Notes under the pieces: model-generated | What the model was told of the DNA's origin: nothing | The model's input: only the letters and a program-made list of their open reading frames with translations | Database searches by the model: none | Source of the DNA: Minisyncoccota bacterium | GTDB lineage: Bacteria; Patescibacteriota; Minisyncoccia; JAHIHE01; JAGLIN01 | Direction of reading: 5' to 3' | Assembly (NCBI GenBank): GCA_041661265.1 | Contig: JBAZUT010000004.1 | Coordinates: forward strand, 63,980 to 127,979 | DNA length: 64,000 nucleotides | Shown here: piece by piece, positions 3,574 through 49,216 of the stretch | How positions within the stretch are numbered: position 1 is the first letter of the stretch | How the letters are laid out: each line of letters opens with the position of its first letter | Translations under genes and position numbers: made by a program

Positions 3574-4686
3574 ATGATGATTCCCTTGTCTCAGCCGGAT
3601 ATCGGCGAGAAGGAGCGAAAGGCCGTGTTGGACGTTTTAAAAACGCCGTGTTTGGCGTTGGGGCCGAAGTTGACAGAGTTTGAAGAAAAATTTTCCCGCT
3701 ATATCGGGACAAAATATGCGGTTGCCGTAAATTCAGGAACCAGCGGATTGCATCTCATCGTACGCGCACTCGGTATCGGGCGCGAGGACGAAGTGATAAC
3801 CTCGCCATTCAGTTTCATAGCTTCGGCAAATTGCATTTTGTTTGAAAATGCGAAACCTGTTTTTGTCGATATTGATCCCGATACTTTGAATATCGATGCC
3901 GGAAAAATTGAAAAAGCGATCACAGACAGAACGAAGGCGATAGTGGCGGTGGATATTTTAGGCCATCCGCTGGATTGGGATCGGGTTACAAAGGTGGCAA
4001 GAAAAAATAAATTAAAGATAATAGAAGACAGTTGTGAAGCTTTTGGCGCCGAATACAGGGGAAGAAAATGCGGAACATTCGGAGAGGCGTCTGTTTTTGC
4101 GTTTTATCCCAATAAACAGATGACGACAGGCGAGGGAGGAATGATCCTGACTGACAGCCGAGAGATAAAAGATCTGTGTTCAAGCATGGCCAATCAGGGA
4201 AGGAAGGTTGAAAACGGGAAATGGCTGGAGCATGTCCGTTTGGGATACAACTATCGCATGTGCGATATCAATGCCGCTTTGGGAATAGCGCAGCTCTCAA
4301 GGATCAATGATATGTTCAAAAAAAGAGACAGGGTCGCAAAGCTTTATGATAAATATCTTGGTGGCGTCGATGGTGTAAGCGTTCCCTATGTCGCTCCGTG
4401 GGCGAAGATCTCATGGTTTGTTTATGTGATCAGGCTTTCTGGTAAATATGTCCGCAAGGACAGGGACAGGATCATGGAAAAATTAAAAGACGCCGGAATA
4501 CAATGCAGTAATTATTTTCAATGCATTCATCTTCAGCCGTTCTATAAAGATCTGTATGGTTATAAACGCGGCGATTTCCCGATCGCGGAAAATATTTCCG
4601 ATCACACGGTTGCTCTGCCTTTTTATAATAACCTGAGCGAAGATAAGATAAAGTACGTGGTCAAATCCCTGAAACGGATCATATAA
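3574..4686 (+). CDS. DegT/DnrJ/EryC1/StrS-family PLP-dependent sugar aminotransferase (PglE/WbpE-like).
   Basis: 370 aa. Motifs LSQPDIGEKERKAV, AVNSGTSGLHL, SFIASAN, EDSCEAFGA and SFYPNKQMTTGEGGM (PLP-lysine region) are characteristic of the family. Confidence 0.88.
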   Translation: MMIPLSQPDIGEKERKAVLDVLKTPCLALGPKLTEFEEKFSRYIGTKYAVAVNSGTSGLHLIVRALGIGREDEVITSPFSFIASANCILFENAKPVFVDIDPDTLNIDAGKIEKAITDRTKAIVAVDILGHPLDWDRVTKVARKNKLKIIEDSCEAFGAEYRGRKCGTFGEASVFAFYPNKQMTTGEGGMILTDSREIKDLCSSMANQGRKVENGKWLEHVRLGYNYRMCDINAALGIAQLSRINDMFKKRDRVAKLYDKYLGGVDGVSVPYVAPWAKISWFVYVIRLSGKYVRKDRDRIMEKLKDAGIQCSNYFQCIHLQPFYKDLYGYKRGDFPIAENISDHTVALPFYNNLSEDKIKYVVKSLKRII

Positions 4687-6660: not shown

Positions 6661-6837
6661 ATGCTAATTGCCCTATTGTTATATTGTCCCATTATTGAAT
6701 TGTTCTTTGCTTCAGTGGATCATGCTTTCTCAGAGTACTGACCTCCTTGGGGAGGTACAGAGCTCTCCGAGTTCTTTCGTACGTTGCCTCAGAGGATCCG
6801 ACCTCTTGGGGGAGATACGGACCTCTTAGCAAAGAGG
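6601..6837 (+). repeat. Composite repeat, copy A. A 5' (A)AAGTC/GAAAGT oligomer array is followed by an AT-rich ATTGTT segment and two GC-rich hairpin units of form CAGAG-N-GACCTC-N5-GAGGT-N-CAGAGCTCT.
   Basis: 6601-6766 aligns at about 80% identity with 8140-8286 (copy B); the same architecture recurs at about 11960-12080 and 13596-13750. The second hairpin unit is 6790-6837. The 5' part encodes the last ~20 aa and stop of the CapD-like gene. Confidence 0.7.
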
Positions 6838-8347: not shown

Positions 8348-9274
8348 ATGGAGGAAATCGGGAGAAAAGAGGGTGAGGAGGTTTATTTAATCGATTATGT
8401 AAAAGTGATGGTAAAAAGAAAAAAAGTGATCACGACGGTGGTCTTGAGCGTTGTTGTTTTGGCGACAATCGTCAGTTTGGTCATGAATAGGGTATACAAG
8501 ATCGAATCCGTGATTGAGATCGGTACGGTATCGGTCGGTGCGCCGATAGAGAGCCCGGAACAGGTGTTGCAGGGGATCAAAAGGGATGTCTATGGCGCCA
8601 TGGTCAGGGAAAAGCTTGATATTTCCGAAACGGATTTCCCTAAGATAAAGACAGGGAATACTTCCGGGACGAATTTGATCTCAATGGAAATTAATTCCAA
8701 TAGGGCTGATCAGGCGAAGAGTGTTTTGGATGAGTTGAGCAATCTGATCATAGCCGGTCATCAGGAAAAGACAAAAGACGCAAAAGCACTTCTGGAAAGC
8801 GAGATTGAGTTAAGGAAGAAGGATATTGAAACTGTCGGTAAGGACGTTGAAAGAGTGAAAGCTAAGATCGTTTTTTTGGAGGAAGAAAGAAATAATCTGG
8901 ACGCGAAAGTTGCAGCTTTGCAGAAAGTGCTGGTTTATCGGCAGGATGCAGGAAGTCAGTTCGCCCTTTTTGATACAAAAGAAAAACTGGCATCAAAAAA
9001 ACAGGAAATAGAGAATACTTATATAGAAGTCAATTCCTCGGAGAACAATATAAATGCAATAAATGGGCAGATTAATATACTGGAAAAACAGATCTCTGAT
9101 ATCCGCATGACAAAAGTGGTGAAAGGTCCGGCTGTTTCTGAGAAAATTGTCAGTCCGGATATTGTTTCCAATCTGATTATTGCAGTGATATTCGGGTTAT
9201 TCCTGGGCATATTCCTGGCTTTTGTGATGGAGTGGTGGGAGAAGAACGGCAAAGAAATGAAAAGTGAAAAATGA
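8348..9274 (+). CDS. Wzz-like polysaccharide co-polymerase (chain-length determinant family).
   Basis: 308 aa. N-terminal TM after a charged leader, long coiled-coil central region, C-terminal TM (LIIAVIFGLFLGIFLAFV): PCP-1 topology. Confidence 0.65.
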   Translation: MEEIGRKEGEEVYLIDYVKVMVKRKKVITTVVLSVVVLATIVSLVMNRVYKIESVIEIGTVSVGAPIESPEQVLQGIKRDVYGAMVREKLDISETDFPKIKTGNTSGTNLISMEINSNRADQAKSVLDELSNLIIAGHQEKTKDAKALLESEIELRKKDIETVGKDVERVKAKIVFLEEERNNLDAKVAALQKVLVYRQDAGSQFALFDTKEKLASKKQEIENTYIEVNSSENNINAINGQINILEKQISDIRMTKVVKGPAVSEKIVSPDIVSNLIIAVIFGLFLGIFLAFVMEWWEKNGKEMKSEK

Positions 9275-9297
9275 AAAGTGAAAAATGAAAAGTGAAA
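9256..9297 (+). repeat. Three tandem copies of a 14-bp unit (AATGAAAAGTGAAA) spanning the Wzz stop codon.
   Basis: Perfect tandem copies at 9256-9269, 9270-9283 and 9284-9297. The last codons (EMKSEK) and the stop at 9272-9274 are encoded by the repeat. Confidence 0.85.
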
Positions 9298-9433
9298 AAG
9301 TAAATAGCACAAAGTGAATAGTAAATCGTAAATGGTAAATCGAGTTTATTGGTTGATTGTTGAGAGAAGTTAATAAAAATCAAGCGAAACTGAGCAAGTG
9401 GCATTTCCTAAAACCGAGTTTGGGCCAGATGCG

Positions 9434-9476
9434 CCTAAAGCTTAGTTTTAGGAAAATCCTAAAACTAAGCTTTAGG
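9434..9476. repeat. Perfect 19-bp inverted repeat with a 5-nt loop (CCTAAAGCTTAGTTTTAGG aaaat CCTAAAACTAAGCTTTAGG), copy 1.
   Basis: The identical palindrome (loop ataat) recurs at 48400-48442. It lies 10 nt upstream of the ATG of the O-antigen-ligase-family gene and about 160 nt downstream of wzz. Extra CCTAAAAC half-site at 9410-9417. Confidence 0.85.
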
Positions 9477-9486
9477 AAGCAGGTCT

Positions 9487-11901
9487 ATGAGTAAAAGAAA
9501 GAAAAATAGATATAGACAGGATGATATTGTTAACAATCCCAAAAGGGACTATACGAAATATTATCTCTTTATTATAAAGGCAGGGATCGTCGCTTGTCTT
9601 TTTTTGCCGTTGCTCGTTGTTCATTCCCATATGTTTGCAATGCAGGTAGGAAAGGTTCTAGTGTTCCGGACTATTATTGAAATAATAGCCTTTTTTTATA
9701 TTATTTTGATTATCAAAAAAGAGGAGTATCGTCCGAAATGGGGTTTGTTCGAGCTTTCAATCGCGGCATTTATAATGGTTTATCTATTGACTTCTTTAAC
9801 GGGTGTGAACTTTCTCAGGAGTTTTTGGGGAACAACTGAAAGAATGGGTGGGTTTTTCACAATGCTCCACTTCTGGGCATATTTTATGATCCTGATTAGC
9901 GTGTTTCGAACAAAAAAAGACTGGAAGATACTTTTTTCTGTTTCGATCTTTGTGGCGGTCATTTCGTCAATGTATGCGTTCGGGCAGAGCGCATTTTTTT
10001 GGAGAGATATTCTTCCATGGATAAAATCCGAAAATATCAATATATATACGGAAATAGCCAGATATGTTACGACTGATAATTTTGTCATCATCAATGACTG
10101 GAGAACTTTCGGTATGATCGGGAATGCAGGGCCCTTTGCGGGATATATTATGTTTAATGTCCTTCTGGGGTTGTATGTTATCAGTTCGGCAAGAAGCATT
10201 AAAAATAAATTCAGTGGCATTATCGCACTCTTGTTTCTATTTTCCGCTTTGTCTGGTGCAGGCACGAGAAGTGCATACATCGCAATTCTGGCGGGATTTG
10301 CCGTTTTATCGGTTATAAATGTCATTTTGTCCAAAAAAAAGAAGATGAGGATCGTTTCCGTCTTGTTCATTCTATTATTAATTATTGGAAGCGGAATTGT
10401 TTGGGCTAATAAGAAAGAGGATTGGGTCAAAAATAGTACTATACTTTCGAGGATGGTTAGTATATCTTTTGAAAATAATGAATCCAGGACTATGACGTGG
10501 GAATCATCCTGGAAAGGATTTGCCGATAGGCCCTTATTGGGAGCGGGGCCCGAGAATTATAATGTTGTTTTTAATAAGTATTTCAATCCTCTGCATTTCA
10601 CGGGATATGGTTCGACTTCTTGGTACGACAAGGCTCATAATATATTTCTTGATATTTTGACGACTATGGGAATTGTGGGACTGTTGAGCTATCTTGGCAT
10701 CTTTGCCATAATTTATTGGTTCTTGATCAAAAACAGGAGAAAAGCGCGGGAGAATCTGCCGGCATTTGCGCTGATCGCTTCGCTTCCCGTTGCTTATTTT
10801 GTCCAGAATATGTTCTGGTTCGATGACTTTTCAAGTTATCTGATGCTTTTCATGTTTTTCGCATTCGTGAGCAATTTTTTCAACCATGGACTTGGGTTTG
10901 AATATAGTGCCGAAAAGGGAAAGAAAGTTACGGATTTTATCCGGAGGAAATTATCTCTCAAGGCTTCTGCTGCGGGCGGCGATAGCGGGAATATCATTAT
11001 CGCGGTTGCGGGAATTGTTTTAATTTTTTCCACTTATTCTGCCAATTTCAAAGCTTGGAGATTCCATGATCTGACAACCGTTGCTGTCGGGGCAATCTCG
11101 CTTAATGCAGATGATTCATTTCTGTGGTACAAGGAAGCTATGAAAAATTCGACTTACCTTGGGAGGCAGGAGCTTTATAAGCGTTTTGGAAATTACGCCA
11201 ATGCGAAATATGTGCTTTCTGATCCGGGAGATCGGCGCAAGACGGAAGAATTCCAAGCCAATCTGAAGTTTGCCATATCCGAGATGGAAAATGCGGTAGC
11301 GGAAAACAAAGAAGACGTGCAATTCTATTCGCTTTTGGGTGCGCTCTATAACAAATATTACAGCAATTTCAGGGAGCCGGAATATATAGACAAAGCCGAA
11401 AAGACTTTGCAAAGGGCGGTTGAGCTCAGTCCTGAGCGCGAGACTGTGTATTATGAATATGGCCAGGCTATGGTTTTCAAAAAAGATTACAAGAAAGCAA
11501 TCGAGTTATTTAAGAAGGGGGTTGACCTGAACCCTCCTGTTCCCATCTCGCATTGGTATCTTGGAATGGCTTATCTTAATGCAAAGGAATATGGTTTGGC
11601 GGATTCTGAGATCAGTGAGGCGATCAAGCTGGGGTATGGATATAAAACGATCAAAGATTTGCTCAGTATCACTCCGATCTATATCGAACTCAAGGACTAT
11701 CAAAGACTTGAGAAGATATATCTGGATGTTTTGGAACTTGATCAAAATAATCCTGAAATCTATGTATCTCTGGCGTTGGTCTATAGAGAGCTTGGTGACA
11801 AAACCGGTGCGATCAAGATGGCGGAAAAGGCTATATCTTTGGACGAATCATTCAGGGTTGAAGGGGAGAAATTTATTGATGAATTGGAAGGTGGGAAGTA
11901 G
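9487..11901 (+). CDS. Wzy_C/O-antigen-ligase-family polytopic membrane protein with C-terminal TPR repeats; candidate O-oligosaccharyltransferase (PglL/PilO-type) or O-antigen polymerase/ligase.
   Basis: 804 aa. About 12 TM segments with a large loop carrying the ligase-family signature (GAGTRSAYIAILAG, AHNIFLDILTTMGIVG) and a soluble C-terminal ~300 aa of TPR-like repeats. Confidence 0.75.
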   Translation: MSKRKKNRYRQDDIVNNPKRDYTKYYLFIIKAGIVACLFLPLLVVHSHMFAMQVGKVLVFRTIIEIIAFFYIILIIKKEEYRPKWGLFELSIAAFIMVYLLTSLTGVNFLRSFWGTTERMGGFFTMLHFWAYFMILISVFRTKKDWKILFSVSIFVAVISSMYAFGQSAFFWRDILPWIKSENINIYTEIARYVTTDNFVIINDWRTFGMIGNAGPFAGYIMFNVLLGLYVISSARSIKNKFSGIIALLFLFSALSGAGTRSAYIAILAGFAVLSVINVILSKKKKMRIVSVLFILLLIIGSGIVWANKKEDWVKNSTILSRMVSISFENNESRTMTWESSWKGFADRPLLGAGPENYNVVFNKYFNPLHFTGYGSTSWYDKAHNIFLDILTTMGIVGLLSYLGIFAIIYWFLIKNRRKARENLPAFALIASLPVAYFVQNMFWFDDFSSYLMLFMFFAFVSNFFNHGLGFEYSAEKGKKVTDFIRRKLSLKASAAGGDSGNIIIAVAGIVLIFSTYSANFKAWRFHDLTTVAVGAISLNADDSFLWYKEAMKNSTYLGRQELYKRFGNYANAKYVLSDPGDRRKTEEFQANLKFAISEMENAVAENKEDVQFYSLLGALYNKYYSNFREPEYIDKAEKTLQRAVELSPERETVYYEYGQAMVFKKDYKKAIELFKKGVDLNPPVPISHWYLGMAYLNAKEYGLADSEISEAIKLGYGYKTIKDLLSITPIYIELKDYQRLEKIYLDVLELDQNNPEIYVSLALVYRELGDKTGAIKMAEKAISLDESFRVEGEKFIDELEGGK

Positions 11902-11959
11902 AGAGTGGGTGGCGGTTAGTAGATTGTAAAGGGGGAAATCAATATATCTCCAAGTTCTC

Positions 11960-12080
11960 TAGAGAGGGGAACAAATTGTATATTGTAAATCGTTCCATTG
12001 CTGAGTTGTTATTGGTCAGAGGATCCGACCTCGTTGGCGAGGTGCGGACCTCTTCGTAAGGGAGTGCAGACCTCTTTGCG
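11960..12080 (+). repeat. Composite repeat, copy C (ATTGT-rich segment plus GC hairpin units).
   Basis: AAATTGTATATTGTAAATCGTTCCATTGCTGAGTTGTTATTGG then CAGAGGATCCGACCTCGTTGGCGAGGTGCGGACCTCT (12017-12053) and a degenerate second unit containing GTGCAGACCTCTTTGCG. A weak GAAGTAGAGAGT match extends into the ligase 3' end from about 11895. Confidence 0.6.
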
Positions 12081-12086
12081 ATAATT

Positions 12087-12115
12087 TCCGCCTTTACGGC
12101 GGGTTTATTTTGTGC
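12087..12115 (+). terminator. Candidate intrinsic terminator (CCGCC-tttac-GGCGG followed by a T-rich run).
   Basis: 5-bp GC stem plus gtttatttt, downstream of the ligase-family gene and repeat copy C. Confidence 0.4.
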
Positions 12116-12154
12116 TATAATTAAAATATCTCAGATAAAAGAAAACAAAAATAG

Positions 12155-47738: not shown

Positions 47739-48344
47739 TTATGATACCAGCTTCAGCTTGTCGAGGCCCAGTCTGTCGCCGAAATATAGCGAGAGGGAAA
47801 GGACGGTGATGGCCGCTATGATCATATATGGCGCGATGGGTATGAGCTCTCTTTTTTGAAGTGCGTAATAATTGAAAATTTGCTTTATGACCAGAAGCCC
47901 GAAAACGGCAAAGACATAGATGATAAAATTCGGCCAGCCGGCGATGAGCGCCGTGAGAAAACCCAGATAAACTTCCTTTTCATCCAGGAAGCGTCTGTTC
48001 GAATATTTGCAAAGCAGCATGAGATAGAAAGCCCAGGCGAGAGCTATTGCGACGTCAAGGACATAGGGGAGCCAGAAGCGATATATTGCATAGTTATAGA
48101 AATAGTCGATCGAGCGGAAAGGGGGGAGGATAAATTGGCTCAAGGGATCTTTTTCCCAGACCTGGAATTGGATCGACGTCGAAAAGCACGCGGTCATAAT
48201 AAAAACAGACATCAAAAATAGGATGCCGAATTTAACAAAGCCCGCGCTGACCCTTTTGTTTTTCACATAATCGTATAGCAGCAAAAACATCCATAGGAAG
48301 GATATTGCAAGCTCGGATATTTTTAATGCAGGAAGAATTTGCAC
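47739..48344 (-). CDS. Polytopic membrane protein (about 6 TM) between the major pilin gene and pilB; possible A24-like prepilin peptidase, very tentative.
   Basis: 201 aa; GTG start. Position (pilA, this gene, pilB, pilC) is where pilD often sits and there are Asp residues in predicted membrane segments (YVLDVAIALAW; YFGDRLG), but the canonical A24 motifs are not clearly recognisable. Confidence 0.5.
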   Translation of the reverse strand: MQILPALKISELAISFLWMFLLLYDYVKNKRVSAGFVKFGILFLMSVFIMTACFSTSIQFQVWEKDPLSQFILPPFRSIDYFYNYAIYRFWLPYVLDVAIALAWAFYLMLLCKYSNRRFLDEKEVYLGFLTALIAGWPNFIIYVFAVFGLLVIKQIFNYYALQKRELIPIAPYMIIAAITVLSLSLYFGDRLGLDKLKLVS

Positions 48345-48399: not shown

Positions 48400-48442
48400 C
48401 CTAAAGCTTAGTTTTAGGATAATCCTAAAACTAAGCTTTAGG
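48400..48442. repeat. Perfect 19-bp inverted repeat with a 5-nt loop (CCTAAAGCTTAGTTTTAGG ataat CCTAAAACTAAGCTTTAGG), copy 2.
   Basis: Identical arms to 9434-9476. Lies between the major pilin gene (about 100 nt downstream of its stop) and the GTG start of 47739..48344 (56 nt upstream). Confidence 0.85.
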
Positions 48443-48500: not shown

Positions 48501-48526
48501 GATAGATCGTTTTTTAACGATCTATC
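48501..48526 (-). other. Perfect 9-bp stem-loop (GATAGATCG-ttttttaa-CGATCTATC) 16 nt downstream of the major pilin stop codon; candidate attenuator, terminator or mRNA-stabilising hairpin.
   Basis: Read directly. No clear U-tract on the pilin-sense strand, so the terminator assignment is uncertain. An overlapping second imperfect hairpin (CGATCTA...TAGATCG) lies at 48484-48510. Confidence 0.35.
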
Positions 48527-48541
48527 GAAATGAGTGCTAAC

Positions 48542-49216
48542 TTAGAAATCTGTTCCTCCACCCAAAATTGTCAGACTAGTTCCGGTTTCGTATAAATCCG
48601 GGTTATTGCCGCCGTCCGATACTGCCTTCGCACCGAATTCGGTGCTTTCGAGTTTGGCATCTATCTCATAAGTTAAGCTATCTCCGCAAGCATATCTATA
48701 AACAAGGTCTGAATTGGCCACGCCTGCAGCAGTAACTGTATTGACCGGGTCAACTGGAAAATTCGATATTGGAGAGCCTCCCGCTAGACTGCTTATATTA
48801 ACGGGAATCCATCCATTTCCGGTCGTAAGCCCGATATTTGCTGCGGTTACCTGACCAGCGCCAGCTGTTCCTGTGAAAGTGGTTCCATCCAGTATCATAT
48901 CCGAAATATCGGTGGTATCGCTTGGAACGCTGTAATATATCTTACCACTGGATTCTTCTCCTACCCAGGTTGCTCCCACTTTGCAGGAACCATTGCTTCC
49001 CATGTCCATGGCAGGGGTCGTACTATTTGTAAGATATAGTCCGATGGCTGTTTTAACTGTTGAAAGATCGGTCATCCTTTGAGTGTCCCTGCTTTTCTTC
49101 ATCGTTTCTGCCGGATTTAGCACCAGGATCAGGGCCATAGCCAAGATTGATAGTATTGCAATGACTATCAAAAGTTCCAGAAGCGTAAATCCTTTTAATT
49201 GTTCTTGTTTAGTCAC
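48542..49216 (-). CDS. pilA: Type IV major pilin (PilA-like).
   Basis: EQLKG|FTLLELLIVIAILSILA with Glu+5, conserved pilin alpha1 helix, 224 aa; first gene of operon 2, followed by a strong hairpin. Confidence 0.85.
   Translation of the reverse strand: MTKQEQLKGFTLLELLIVIAILSILAMALILVLNPAETMKKSRDTQRMTDLSTVKTAIGLYLTNSTTPAMDMGSNGSCKVGATWVGEESSGKIYYSVPSDTTDISDMILDGTTFTGTAGAGQVTAANIGLTTGNGWIPVNISSLAGGSPISNFPVDPVNTVTAAGVANSDLVYRYACGDSLTYEIDAKLESTEFGAKAVSDGGNNPDLYETGTSLTILGGGTDF

Follow-up and report, generated by a model that had tools for sequence, protein, structure and literature searches.

A dispersed palindromic repeat of Patescibacteria, its tight inverted doublets and an associated RAYT-like transposase gene

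Results

The window, by which we mean the whole 64,000-nt stretch of DNA analyzed here, holds two 43-bp palindromes, one between the genes for a Wzz-like chain-length determinant and an O-antigen ligase family protein and the other within a type IV pilus operon (Table 1). Copy 1 reads CCTAAAGCTTAGTTTTAGG-AAAAT-CCTAAAACTAAGCTTTAGG, and copy 2 has the arms of copy 1 around the loop ATAAT. The original prediction spoke of an identical perfect 43-bp palindrome at two loci, with 19-bp arms and a 5-nt loop; the 19-nt arms are indeed identical, but the loops differ by 1 nt, and although arms and loop can be read in that way, pairing actually reaches 20-21 bp, over which both copies are 100% complementary, and leaves a loop of 3 or 1 nt. 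Its spacings agree with ours: copy 1 begins 159 nt past the stop of the Wzz-like gene (9274) and ends 10 nt short of the ATG at 9487; copy 2, in minus-strand reading, follows the pilin stop at 48542 by 99 nt and precedes the GTG at 48344 by 55 nt. The absence of a T/U tract 3' of either copy was likewise seen again. The extra half-sites that were said to flank copy 1, on the other hand, come down to one CCTAAAAC alone, at 9407.

Table 1. Features around the two palindromes, in window coordinates
Feature	Position	Strand	Description
Wzz-like chain-length determinant, upstream of copy 1	8348..9274	+	ORF; orthologues labeled PF02706 Wzz
Decayed third unit	9407..9425	.	CCTAAAACCGAGTTTgggc; 3 stem mismatches, no stable fold
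Doublet copy 1	9434..9476	.	inverted 19-nt REP-like units 9434-9452 and 9458-9476; 5-nt spacer AAAAT
Wzy_C (O-antigen ligase family) and TPR membrane protein, downstream of copy 1	9487..11901	+	identical to P0011; MFA6096780.1
201-aa membrane protein, downstream of copy 2	47739..48344	-	no Pfam match; PilB and PilC next
Doublet copy 2	48400..48442	.	spacer between pilin and membrane-protein genes, minus-strand type IV pilus operon; spacer ATAAT
Type IV pilin (N_methyl), upstream of copy 2	48542..49216	-	ORF

Alignment of the flanks shows that homology between the two loci ends sharply at the 43-bp borders; with only these 43 bp matching, no terminal inverted repeats and no target duplication, the body of a larger mobile element was rejected. 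The arm 19-mer was matched in 0 of 100 dinucleotide-preserving shuffles of the window. Two independent Logan assemblies (L147 and L148) contain copy 2 with the same sequence, so it is no assembly artifact. At three or fewer mismatches, the sole site in the 64-kb window besides the two doublet loci is the decayed unit at 9407, which makes copy 1 a trimer composed of a singleton plus a dimer. A third 43-bp doublet with identical arms occurs on another contig of the MAG to which the window belongs ('Ca. Paceibacterota'; L068, positions 380-422). Its neighbors are MFA6097489/90 (locus tags WC788_07730/35), and the end of the upstream ORF, its final three codons plus the stop, falls within the doublet (12-nt overlap). 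Arm positions 7, 10 and 13 are asymmetric, yet they are identical in all three doublets of this MAG.

Copy 1 folds as a 20-bp hairpin on either strand. As RNA, the doublet reaches -33 kcal/mol (z -7 to -9) whichever strand is folded, and as single-stranded DNA -20.2 kcal/mol (z -8.5; copy 1). The AGG of AGGAAG, a candidate Shine-Dalgarno sequence of the ligase gene, sits in the copy-1 stem. In consensus scans, neither window copy had a predicted canonical promoter or terminator beside it; the terminator scan gave nothing at copy 2 and only internal-arm artifacts at copy 1. An intrinsic terminator is not supported, the stem being A+T-rich with T before and A after it on both strands and no U tract.

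The unit that is repeated is half of the 43-mer, a palindrome of 19-25 bp of the form (TTT)CCTAAARC-N3-GYTTTAGG(AAA). Each 19-nt arm is itself near-palindromic (16/19 positions), with a stem of 8 bp, or 11 bp including the T/A feet, and a 3-nt loop; folded as single-stranded DNA, single units give -3.7 to -8.3 kcal/mol (z -5 to -8). A degenerate arm pattern returned 59 loci when one genome per species was searched, and a metagenome scan added 85 more, most of them matched on both strands with an offset of 1 nt, so the palindrome measures at least 21 bp. With the outward flank profile (A at 1.00/0.68/0.50, with T mirrored on the opposite side), the unit grows to about 25 bp. MAGs of Moranbacteria and of other Patescibacteria have flanks arranged in reverse to those of ordinary terminators, tttCCTAAAGCTnAGCTTTAGGaaa, and the motif there is single or paired. 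With a stem-only definition, about 147 unique family-type units were collected, in a sample biased by the exact-match patterns (CTNAG search pattern). Their loops include TAA, TTA, CGA, TCG, TCA, TTC, GAA, CAG and CGG, the excess of TAA and TTA being due to the search pattern used. Tight doublets with spacers of 3-14 nt number 17 unique cases, 12 inverted, 4 direct and 1 tie.

The family is dispersed in the non-coding DNA of many Patescibacteria (Paceibacterota, Moranbacteria and Parcubacteria), and the sequence of the unit is conserved across lineages of GC 0.30-0.53. Units mixing G and A types (G-C/A-T at positions 7 and 13) are fewer than expected, 9 against about 23; this deficit fits a hairpin constraint, and lineage-specific subfamilies would give the same. 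The unit foot carries no 5' GT[AG]G or CGTC tag, and in the flank profile the two sides are symmetric.

Several other identities were considered and set aside. Outside Patescibacteria, matches to the 19-mer fall on the stems of ordinary terminators, flanked by an A run and a T run, or on conserved gene-adjacent sites, and were not counted as family. A scan of the window at Rfam gathering thresholds returned one tRNA only and nothing at the palindromes; permissive Rfam scans yielded only far-sub-threshold matches to eukaryotic miRNA precursors, which are generic hairpins. Viral contigs gave 2 matches, neither of the family type, and a phage origin was discarded. The work on a Patescibacteria LexA motif concerns a different motif, as presented in the part of PMC7739468 that cites it. 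DNA-uptake sequences, parS, matS, Noc-type sites and NrdR/CIRCE boxes are misfits in density, strict intergenic location or sequence. A literature search by sequence string returned only unrelated primer matches.

Units are almost always non-coding, in genomes that are roughly 90% coding. Classifiable spacers with units divide into 41 tandem, 10 convergent and 7 divergent, counts that come from a crude ORF caller and include some non-family terminator matches; family-type sites occur in about five convergent and about five divergent spacers. This split reveals no promoter-side bias. Among 21 calls 'inside ORF' by the same crude caller, three are the in-gene copies within Y1 genes that are described below. 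Distances from unit to start codon range from 2 to >200 nt. There are operon spacers that a unit fills exactly, with about 5 nt separating it from the stop and about 9 nt from the next start; other units stand ahead of a -35 box, and L133 has one unit on each side of what reads as a canonical terminator. In roughly 80 kb of the window's MAG there are 3 doublets, a single decayed unit and, at a Y1 gene, 3 further units, all non-coding except for the in-ORF copy and the 12-nt gene-end overlap. L159 has 7 units in 20.7 kb, including four dispersed ones, among which is an inverted doublet at 4051/4076. Scattering without positional bias, which the original prediction had linked to a purely selfish repeat, is thus essentially what is found, save for the strong non-coding bias. 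The metagenome contigs L150, L158 and L012 end in or beside hairpins.

Doublets have been gained or lost at orthologous spacers. The 201-aa protein has homologues of 62-96% identity, set in a conserved gene order of sensor kinase, two response regulators, pilin, 201-aa protein, PilB and PilC. Of the pilin spacers compared, those of the window lineage and of L150 (66% identity; ATTAT loop as in the window; contig beginning within the palindrome) contain the doublet, and those of L149 (74%), L152 (70%), L153 (68%) and L151 (62%) do not. A different hairpin directly after the pilin stop is kept in all these relatives. In the ligase spacer, the window alone has the doublet among the relatives compared (L154-L157). 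In L156 (63% identity) a single intact unit precedes the orthologous ligase start by 9 nt, and the spacers of L154, L155 and L157 have no unit. If the doublet and the preceding 8 nt are taken away, the decayed unit of the window would stand 10 nt from the ATG, like the unit of L156. This match suggests that the doublet was inserted beside an older unit, and the decayed unit is probably the ancestral unit of the ligase spacer.

The repeat family is associated with genes for a Y1/HUH transposase. Four different Y1 queries were run against the window by tblastn, and none of them found a Y1 gene there. A second repeat family in the window survives only as remnants, its gene having been lost. In two relatives the ligase gene is immediately followed by a PF01797 gene of 201-202 aa, and this gene is flanked by a different palindrome, GTCGAGGTSSGACCTC. 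With the proteins of these two relatives as tblastn queries, Y1 genes were located in four distinct loci that had been fetched by the palindrome alone (L039/L062, L053/L123, L113 and L133); in L123, L062 and L133, one unit precedes the start by 6-13 nt, another lies about 200 nt into the ORF and a third follows the stop by 1-4 nt. A protein search then retrieved 4,260 homologues (E <1e-5). In an independent test on loci picked by protein without recourse to the DNA, P0177 (L158) and P0191 (L159/L160) repeat the three unit positions, with units at 9969, 10201 and 10677 in L158 and at 9969, 10201 and 10676 in L159/L160. The three-hairpin layout comprises six distinct loci, two of them ascertained by protein alone, with L113 and L133 showing it only partly. 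The notion that the flanking units are always inverted was dropped, as it is true for L123 and L133 and false for L158 and L062. The 5' unit at the Y1 gene abuts TATAAT. One Y1 copy was seen per locus, most homologue clusters are confined to 1-2 contigs, and L159 and L160 share their gene neighborhood. Almost every unit is solo, with no gene attached.

P0177 (MFA6096741.1) is encoded on the same 176,150-bp contig as the ligase gene of the window (MFA6096780.1), 39 protein accessions apart, which places a Y1 gene of the window's genome about 30-40 kb beyond the window start. The units flanking it, CCTAAAACTTCGTTTTAGG, differ from the doublet arms at 2/19 positions.

To Pfam PF01797 (Y1_Tnp), all six of the six proteins tested score 28-39 bits against a gathering score of 23. 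The sole relevant NCBIfam match is NF047646, REP-associated tyrosine transposase, at 25-39 bits and below its cutoff of 80; no IS200/IS605 model of NCBIfam was matched by the six Y1 proteins. The HUH motif NPNHYH is found in 107/120 homologues and the Tyr motif SAYVNKN in 79/120, and the HUH and Tyr motif columns are invariant in alignment A2. Some homologues bear the JGI label 'REP element-mobilizing transposase RayT'. Searches of PDB sequences with a single protein and with a profile returned no relative. An AlphaFold2 model of P0177 (pLDDT 79, pTM 0.80) was compared with the PDB by Foldseek, and the top match was 4ER8 chain A (4er8_A), the E. coli RAYT bound to a REP hairpin; the match is modest, with E 5.6e-5, probability 1.00, TM 0.40/0.52 and 14% identity. 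The next-best fold matches are the structures of IS608 and ISDra2 TnpA.

Ahead of the HUH motif the protein has an insertion of about 30 residues, and the internal hairpin falls within it, reading F-L-K-x-x-F-R in the only open frame. FLK and FR are nearly invariant among 120 homologues. The middle residues are mostly LG, LS, LR, PG, RS and PS, the products of C-NNN-G loop codons; VP, GT and SV misfit this template. In the four hairpin-bearing genes the synonymous codons are frozen (CTA x4, TTT x4, AGG x4), whereas other invariant Leu/Arg codons of the same alignment are written with 4-5 different codons. L113 is without a hairpin at the in-gene site, and codons and residues both differ there. 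Together, the frozen codons and the divergence of L113 place the constraint on the hairpin in the DNA rather than on the peptide.

Discussion

Our best reading is that the palindrome belongs to a REP-type repeat, a known kind of element found in a new phylum, and is not the operator of a regulator. We consider it likely that the 43-mers are tight inverted doublets, REPIN/BIME-like, of a REP-like unit tied to a RAYT-like Y1/HUH transposase in a REPtron-like system. A second miniature repeat family was among the options of the original prediction, and it is this one that the data bear out, with the palindrome as a doublet of a dispersed unit linked to the transposase. For comparison with known systems we draw on sections of several published accounts. 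According to these, REP stems are of 5-13 bp, the repeats come as singletons, dimers and trimers with dimer partners 1-5 bp apart, and families go down to tens of units (PMC3733652); a REPtron is a RAYT gene with same-family flanking repeats, a definition that fits here (PMC6006769; also PMC5581495). The REP/BIME/REPIN-RAYT systems of E. coli, Pseudomonas and Stenotrophomonas, as described there (PMC3116915, PMC6006769, PMC3733652; 4ER8), share with the Patescibacteria family an extragenic palindrome with a stem of 8-11 bp, the occurrence of singletons, trimers and inverted dimers that fold as one larger hairpin, a single repeat family flanking a Y1/HUH gene with HUH and Tyr motifs, and gain and loss at orthologous sites.

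There are clear differences as well. The Patescibacteria unit is without the GT[AG]G/CGTC tag and is fully symmetric, with T/A-rich feet, and the dimer spacer is 3-14 nt against the usual 20-100 nt of REP/REPIN systems. The protein is remote from the E. coli RAYT (14% identity to 4ER8) and has the insertion of about 30 aa before HUH. The Patescibacteria gene keeps a copy of the hairpin in frame inside its ORF. The unit sequence is conserved over a wide range of lineages and the hosts have ultra-small genomes, whereas tnpA_REP-like genes are reported to favor larger genomes (PMC6006769). We count the cross-lineage conservation against the REP reading, as a conserved host DNA-binding protein would also fit it. 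Also weighing against this reading are the missing tag, the NCBIfam score far below the cutoff, the modest fold match, the low copy number in the window (two loci in 64 kb), the 2/19 differences between doublet arms and Y1-flanking units, and the inconsistent orientation of those flanking units. A further parallel may be subclass 2.6 of TnpA_Y1 (Quentin et al. 2018, mostly Bacteroidetes), for which the description in the same sections gives atypical, untagged flanking hairpins with copies elsewhere in the genome (PMC6006769). Going by that description, the likeness extends to a RAYT-like gene, to non-canonical flanking structures with extra genomic copies and to short insertions in the core domain, while the phylum differs and an in-ORF hairpin is not mentioned for subclass 2.6 in those sections (PMC6006769).

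Catalysis and mobilization by the Y1 protein, like any effect at the RNA level, are steps that we infer. By analogy with E. coli TnpA_REP and IS608 TnpA, the enzyme would recognize the hairpin on single-stranded DNA and would cut and rejoin near the hairpin foot; units or doublets might thereby be excised, copied or inserted in intergenic DNA. The identity of the arms in three doublets, including the asymmetric positions 7, 10 and 13, suggests that the doublet is most likely copied or homogenized as one unit. An inserted hairpin would be co-transcribed and may change the expression of neighboring genes, possibly as a stabilizing barrier at an mRNA 3' end or as an RNase III-type substrate, and at copy 1 it could occlude the ribosome-binding region of the ligase gene. 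Since the RNA hairpin is very stable, an effect on mRNA stability or processing is a plausible secondary consequence.

The reverse order of importance, in which an intercistronic hairpin was selected as a stabilizer of the upstream mRNA, an RNase III site or a translation gate and the DNA repeat is secondary, is unlikely in our estimation. It would account for the stability of the stem on either strand (-33 kcal/mol, z about -7 to -9), for the location of both window copies within co-oriented, probably co-transcribed gene pairs and for copy 1 stopping 10 nt short of an ATG. However, the same sequence occurs whatever the direction of transcription, in convergent and divergent spacers too, and it is the sequence that is conserved, not structure alone. 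The doublet is patchy, while the other hairpin after the pilin stop is kept in all relatives. No Rfam family rises above noise, and the linkage to the transposase is left unexplained. The excess of G-C/A-T covariation at positions 7 and 13 (9 mixed units against about 23 expected) speaks for an RNA role, but it could arise equally from a DNA hairpin constraint or from lineage-specific subfamilies.

A smaller probability attaches to the possibility that the Y1 gene with its flanking hairpins is an ordinary autonomous IS200/IS605 element, the solo palindromes being PATE/MITE-like derivatives or target sites. The name of the Pfam family, Y1_Tnp or 'Transposase IS200 like', points this way, as do the next-best fold matches to IS608 and ISDra2 TnpA and the subterminal hairpins that form the ends of such elements. 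Indeed, IS200/IS605 elements (IS608, ISDra2) and PATEs resemble the present system in their Y1/HUH chemistry on single-stranded DNA hairpins and in their small non-autonomous hairpin elements. Among NCBIfam models, however, the proteins matched the RAYT model only, and the top fold match is a RAYT. The 5', internal and 3' hairpins are of the same family as the dispersed units, with no distinct left and right ends, and solo units without a gene vastly outnumber the genes. The conserved L159/L160 neighborhood, the single copy per locus and the restriction of most clusters to 1-2 contigs likewise count against an ordinary insertion sequence.

Slightly less probable again, and on our assessment very unlikely, is an operator role, with a conserved dimeric transcription factor binding the palindrome to control surface-structure genes (pilus, glycan ligase). 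The geometry is inviting: the 8-bp half-sites lie 11 bp apart from center to center, one helical turn, and doubled sites would allow cooperative binding. The palindrome is perfect and its sequence conserved in many lineages, several units are found 5-13 nt before starts or just upstream of a -35 box, and the 5' unit of the Y1 gene abuts TATAAT. CIRCE/HrcA operators are similar in being conserved perfect inverted repeats near starts that can act at the DNA and RNA levels. CIRCE, however, has a fixed position, a defined regulon and conserved orthologous promoters, whereas the units are indifferent to context, patchy and linked to a transposase. They occur between convergent genes and right after stops as well as in tandem and divergent spacers, with one overlapping a stop codon, their distances from starts vary widely, and close relatives keep the genes without the doublet in the orthologous spacers; on these grounds the operator option of the original prediction is not supported. 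Moreover, the downstream genes are functionally unrelated, no canonical promoter is predicted beside either window copy, and the Y1 transposase gene is strongly associated with the units. The three doublets are also identical where a symmetric dimer imposes no constraint, at positions 7, 10 and 13, which are complementary between arms. Finally, coincidence, local duplication and misassembly, which the presence of only two loci in the 64-kb window might suggest, are already refuted and have practically no probability left, given the 0/100 shuffles, the third copy on another contig of the MAG, the identical copy 2 in independent assemblies and the hundreds of related units in other genomes.

Within the REP-type reading, the hairpin inside the transposase ORF is an atypical feature. 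We know of no in-frame hairpin within the transposase gene of a classical REPtron. The sections drawn on here of three surveys do not mention an in-ORF hairpin (PMC6006769, PMC5581495, PMC3733652). A tentative proposal, which we regard as possible though doubtful, is that the in-gene hairpin (TTC CTA AAR CNN NGY TTT AGG) is functional and its peptide dispensable, and that a REP-RAYT system is widespread and long-maintained in streamlined Patescibacteria, a clade that by itself yielded 4,260 homologues. If so, the in-gene hairpin might, for instance, serve in self-recognition or autoregulation, or act as a protected master copy that regenerates dispersed units and doublets; this would explain the unusual conservation of the unit across lineages. 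Biochemical work would find concrete substrates in the unit, which is small, symmetric and untagged, and in its in-gene copy.

Hairpins of this family break metagenome assemblies and are open to misannotation as operators or terminators in CPR genomes. In full-text literature searches, we found no paper linking REP, REPIN or RAYT with Patescibacteria, CPR or Parcubacteria, only automated gene labels. REPIN-RAYT studies have reportedly been carried out almost entirely in Proteobacteria. A REPtron-like system in symbiotic Patescibacteria of roughly 1 Mb would extend the phenomenon to strongly streamlined genomes, in which purely selfish DNA should be hard to retain, and it would thus bear on whether RAYTs and REPINs are domesticated and beneficial.

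Hairpin Units Within and Around the RAYT-Like Gene

Units of the REP-like hairpin family lie at the 5′ end of, and also within, the RAYT-like Y1/HUH transposase gene (P0177 in L158, on the same contig as the window). In L158 and its homologue L062, a TATAAT box directly follows the 5′ unit and the ATG comes 6–7 nt later; the hairpin therefore overlaps the likely promoter in both, and their transcripts may have almost no leader. This layout of a hairpin on a promoter is a possible autoregulatory arrangement. L123 differs, with its −10 box upstream of the 5′ unit. A further copy of the unit is found in frame inside the ORF, where it encodes the peptide F-L-K-x-x-F-R, and its synonymous sites are frozen between RAYT-like genes that are ~70–78% identical; the homologue L113 has no hairpin unit at the corresponding site. 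Upstream of the gene, L159 contains ~6 kb without called genes, and the equivalent region of L160 carries a LAGLIDADG homing-endonuclease ORF. The stretch beside the transposase gene may be an intron-containing rRNA operon.

Coordinates of the features described (nt)
Feature	Source	Position
5′ unit, TATAAT and start region of RAYT-like gene	L158	9969-10003
	L062	5427-5464
Hairpin unit inside RAYT-like ORF	L158	10201-10219
	L159	10201-10219
	L123	3883-3901
	L062	5662-5680
Stretch without called genes	L159	4043-10001
LAGLIDADG ORF	L160	320-826
Contig end at or near unit	L150	position 1
	L158	end (10705)
	L012	position 24
Unit near tRNA gene	L104	4220-4315
	L140	4248-4352
	L030	~522-600
19-mer CCTAAAGCTnAGCTTTAGG in terminators	Spirochaetota MAGs L027, L038, L049, L051, L055	
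	Bacteroidota L035, L043, L058	
Tandem repeats	Window	~9256-9343
Post-pilin hairpin (minus-strand transcript)	Window	48501-48526
Second-family palindromes	Window	6792-6805, 12019-12032, 12039-12052
	L154	12242-12376, 13031-13046
	L157	2735-2749, 3414-3428
Ligase/histidine-kinase spacer	Window	11902-12154

Genomic Contexts of the Units

Several metagenome contigs start or stop within, or a few nucleotides from, a unit or doublet, which suggests that the repeats interrupt assembly from short reads. At several loci, units lie 5–11 nt from tRNA genes (tRNA-Trp, tRNA-Arg). The 19-mer CCTAAAGCTnAGCTTTAGG also occurs in unrelated phyla, where ordinary terminator hairpins with A-run/T-run flanks are built around it, and in the spirochaetes it adjoins sequence that reads like a tRNA end. 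These Spirochaetota and Bacteroidota occurrences were rejected as family members; they represent an easy palindrome used convergently.

Upstream of doublet copy 1 in the window, short tandem repeats (AAAAGTGAAAAATG..., followed by GTAAAT-like units) begin where the Wzz-like gene has its last codons and occupy the first part of the spacer. In the spacer of doublet copy 2, a hairpin with an 11-bp stem, GATAGATCGTT-TTTT-AACGATCTATC, lies ~15 nt past the pilin stop codon and is kept in all of the relatives L147, L149, L151, L152, and L153, while the remaining spacer diverges. No T tract follows this hairpin, which is likely a 3′ stabilizer or attenuator of the pilin mRNA.

A Second Palindrome Family

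The window also contains a second family of small palindromes, GAGG(A/T)(T/G)C(C/G)GACCTC or GTCGAGGTSSGACCTC. In L154 and L157, relatives at the ligase locus, palindromes of this family bracket a Y1_Tnp gene that is distinct from P0177 (~30% identity) and has the ligase gene on one side and the histidine-kinase gene on the other. The corresponding spacer of the window holds palindrome remnants only, with the Y1_Tnp gene absent, which suggests loss of the transposase in the window lineage and points to this family and its Y1_Tnp as a second REP-RAYT-like pair.
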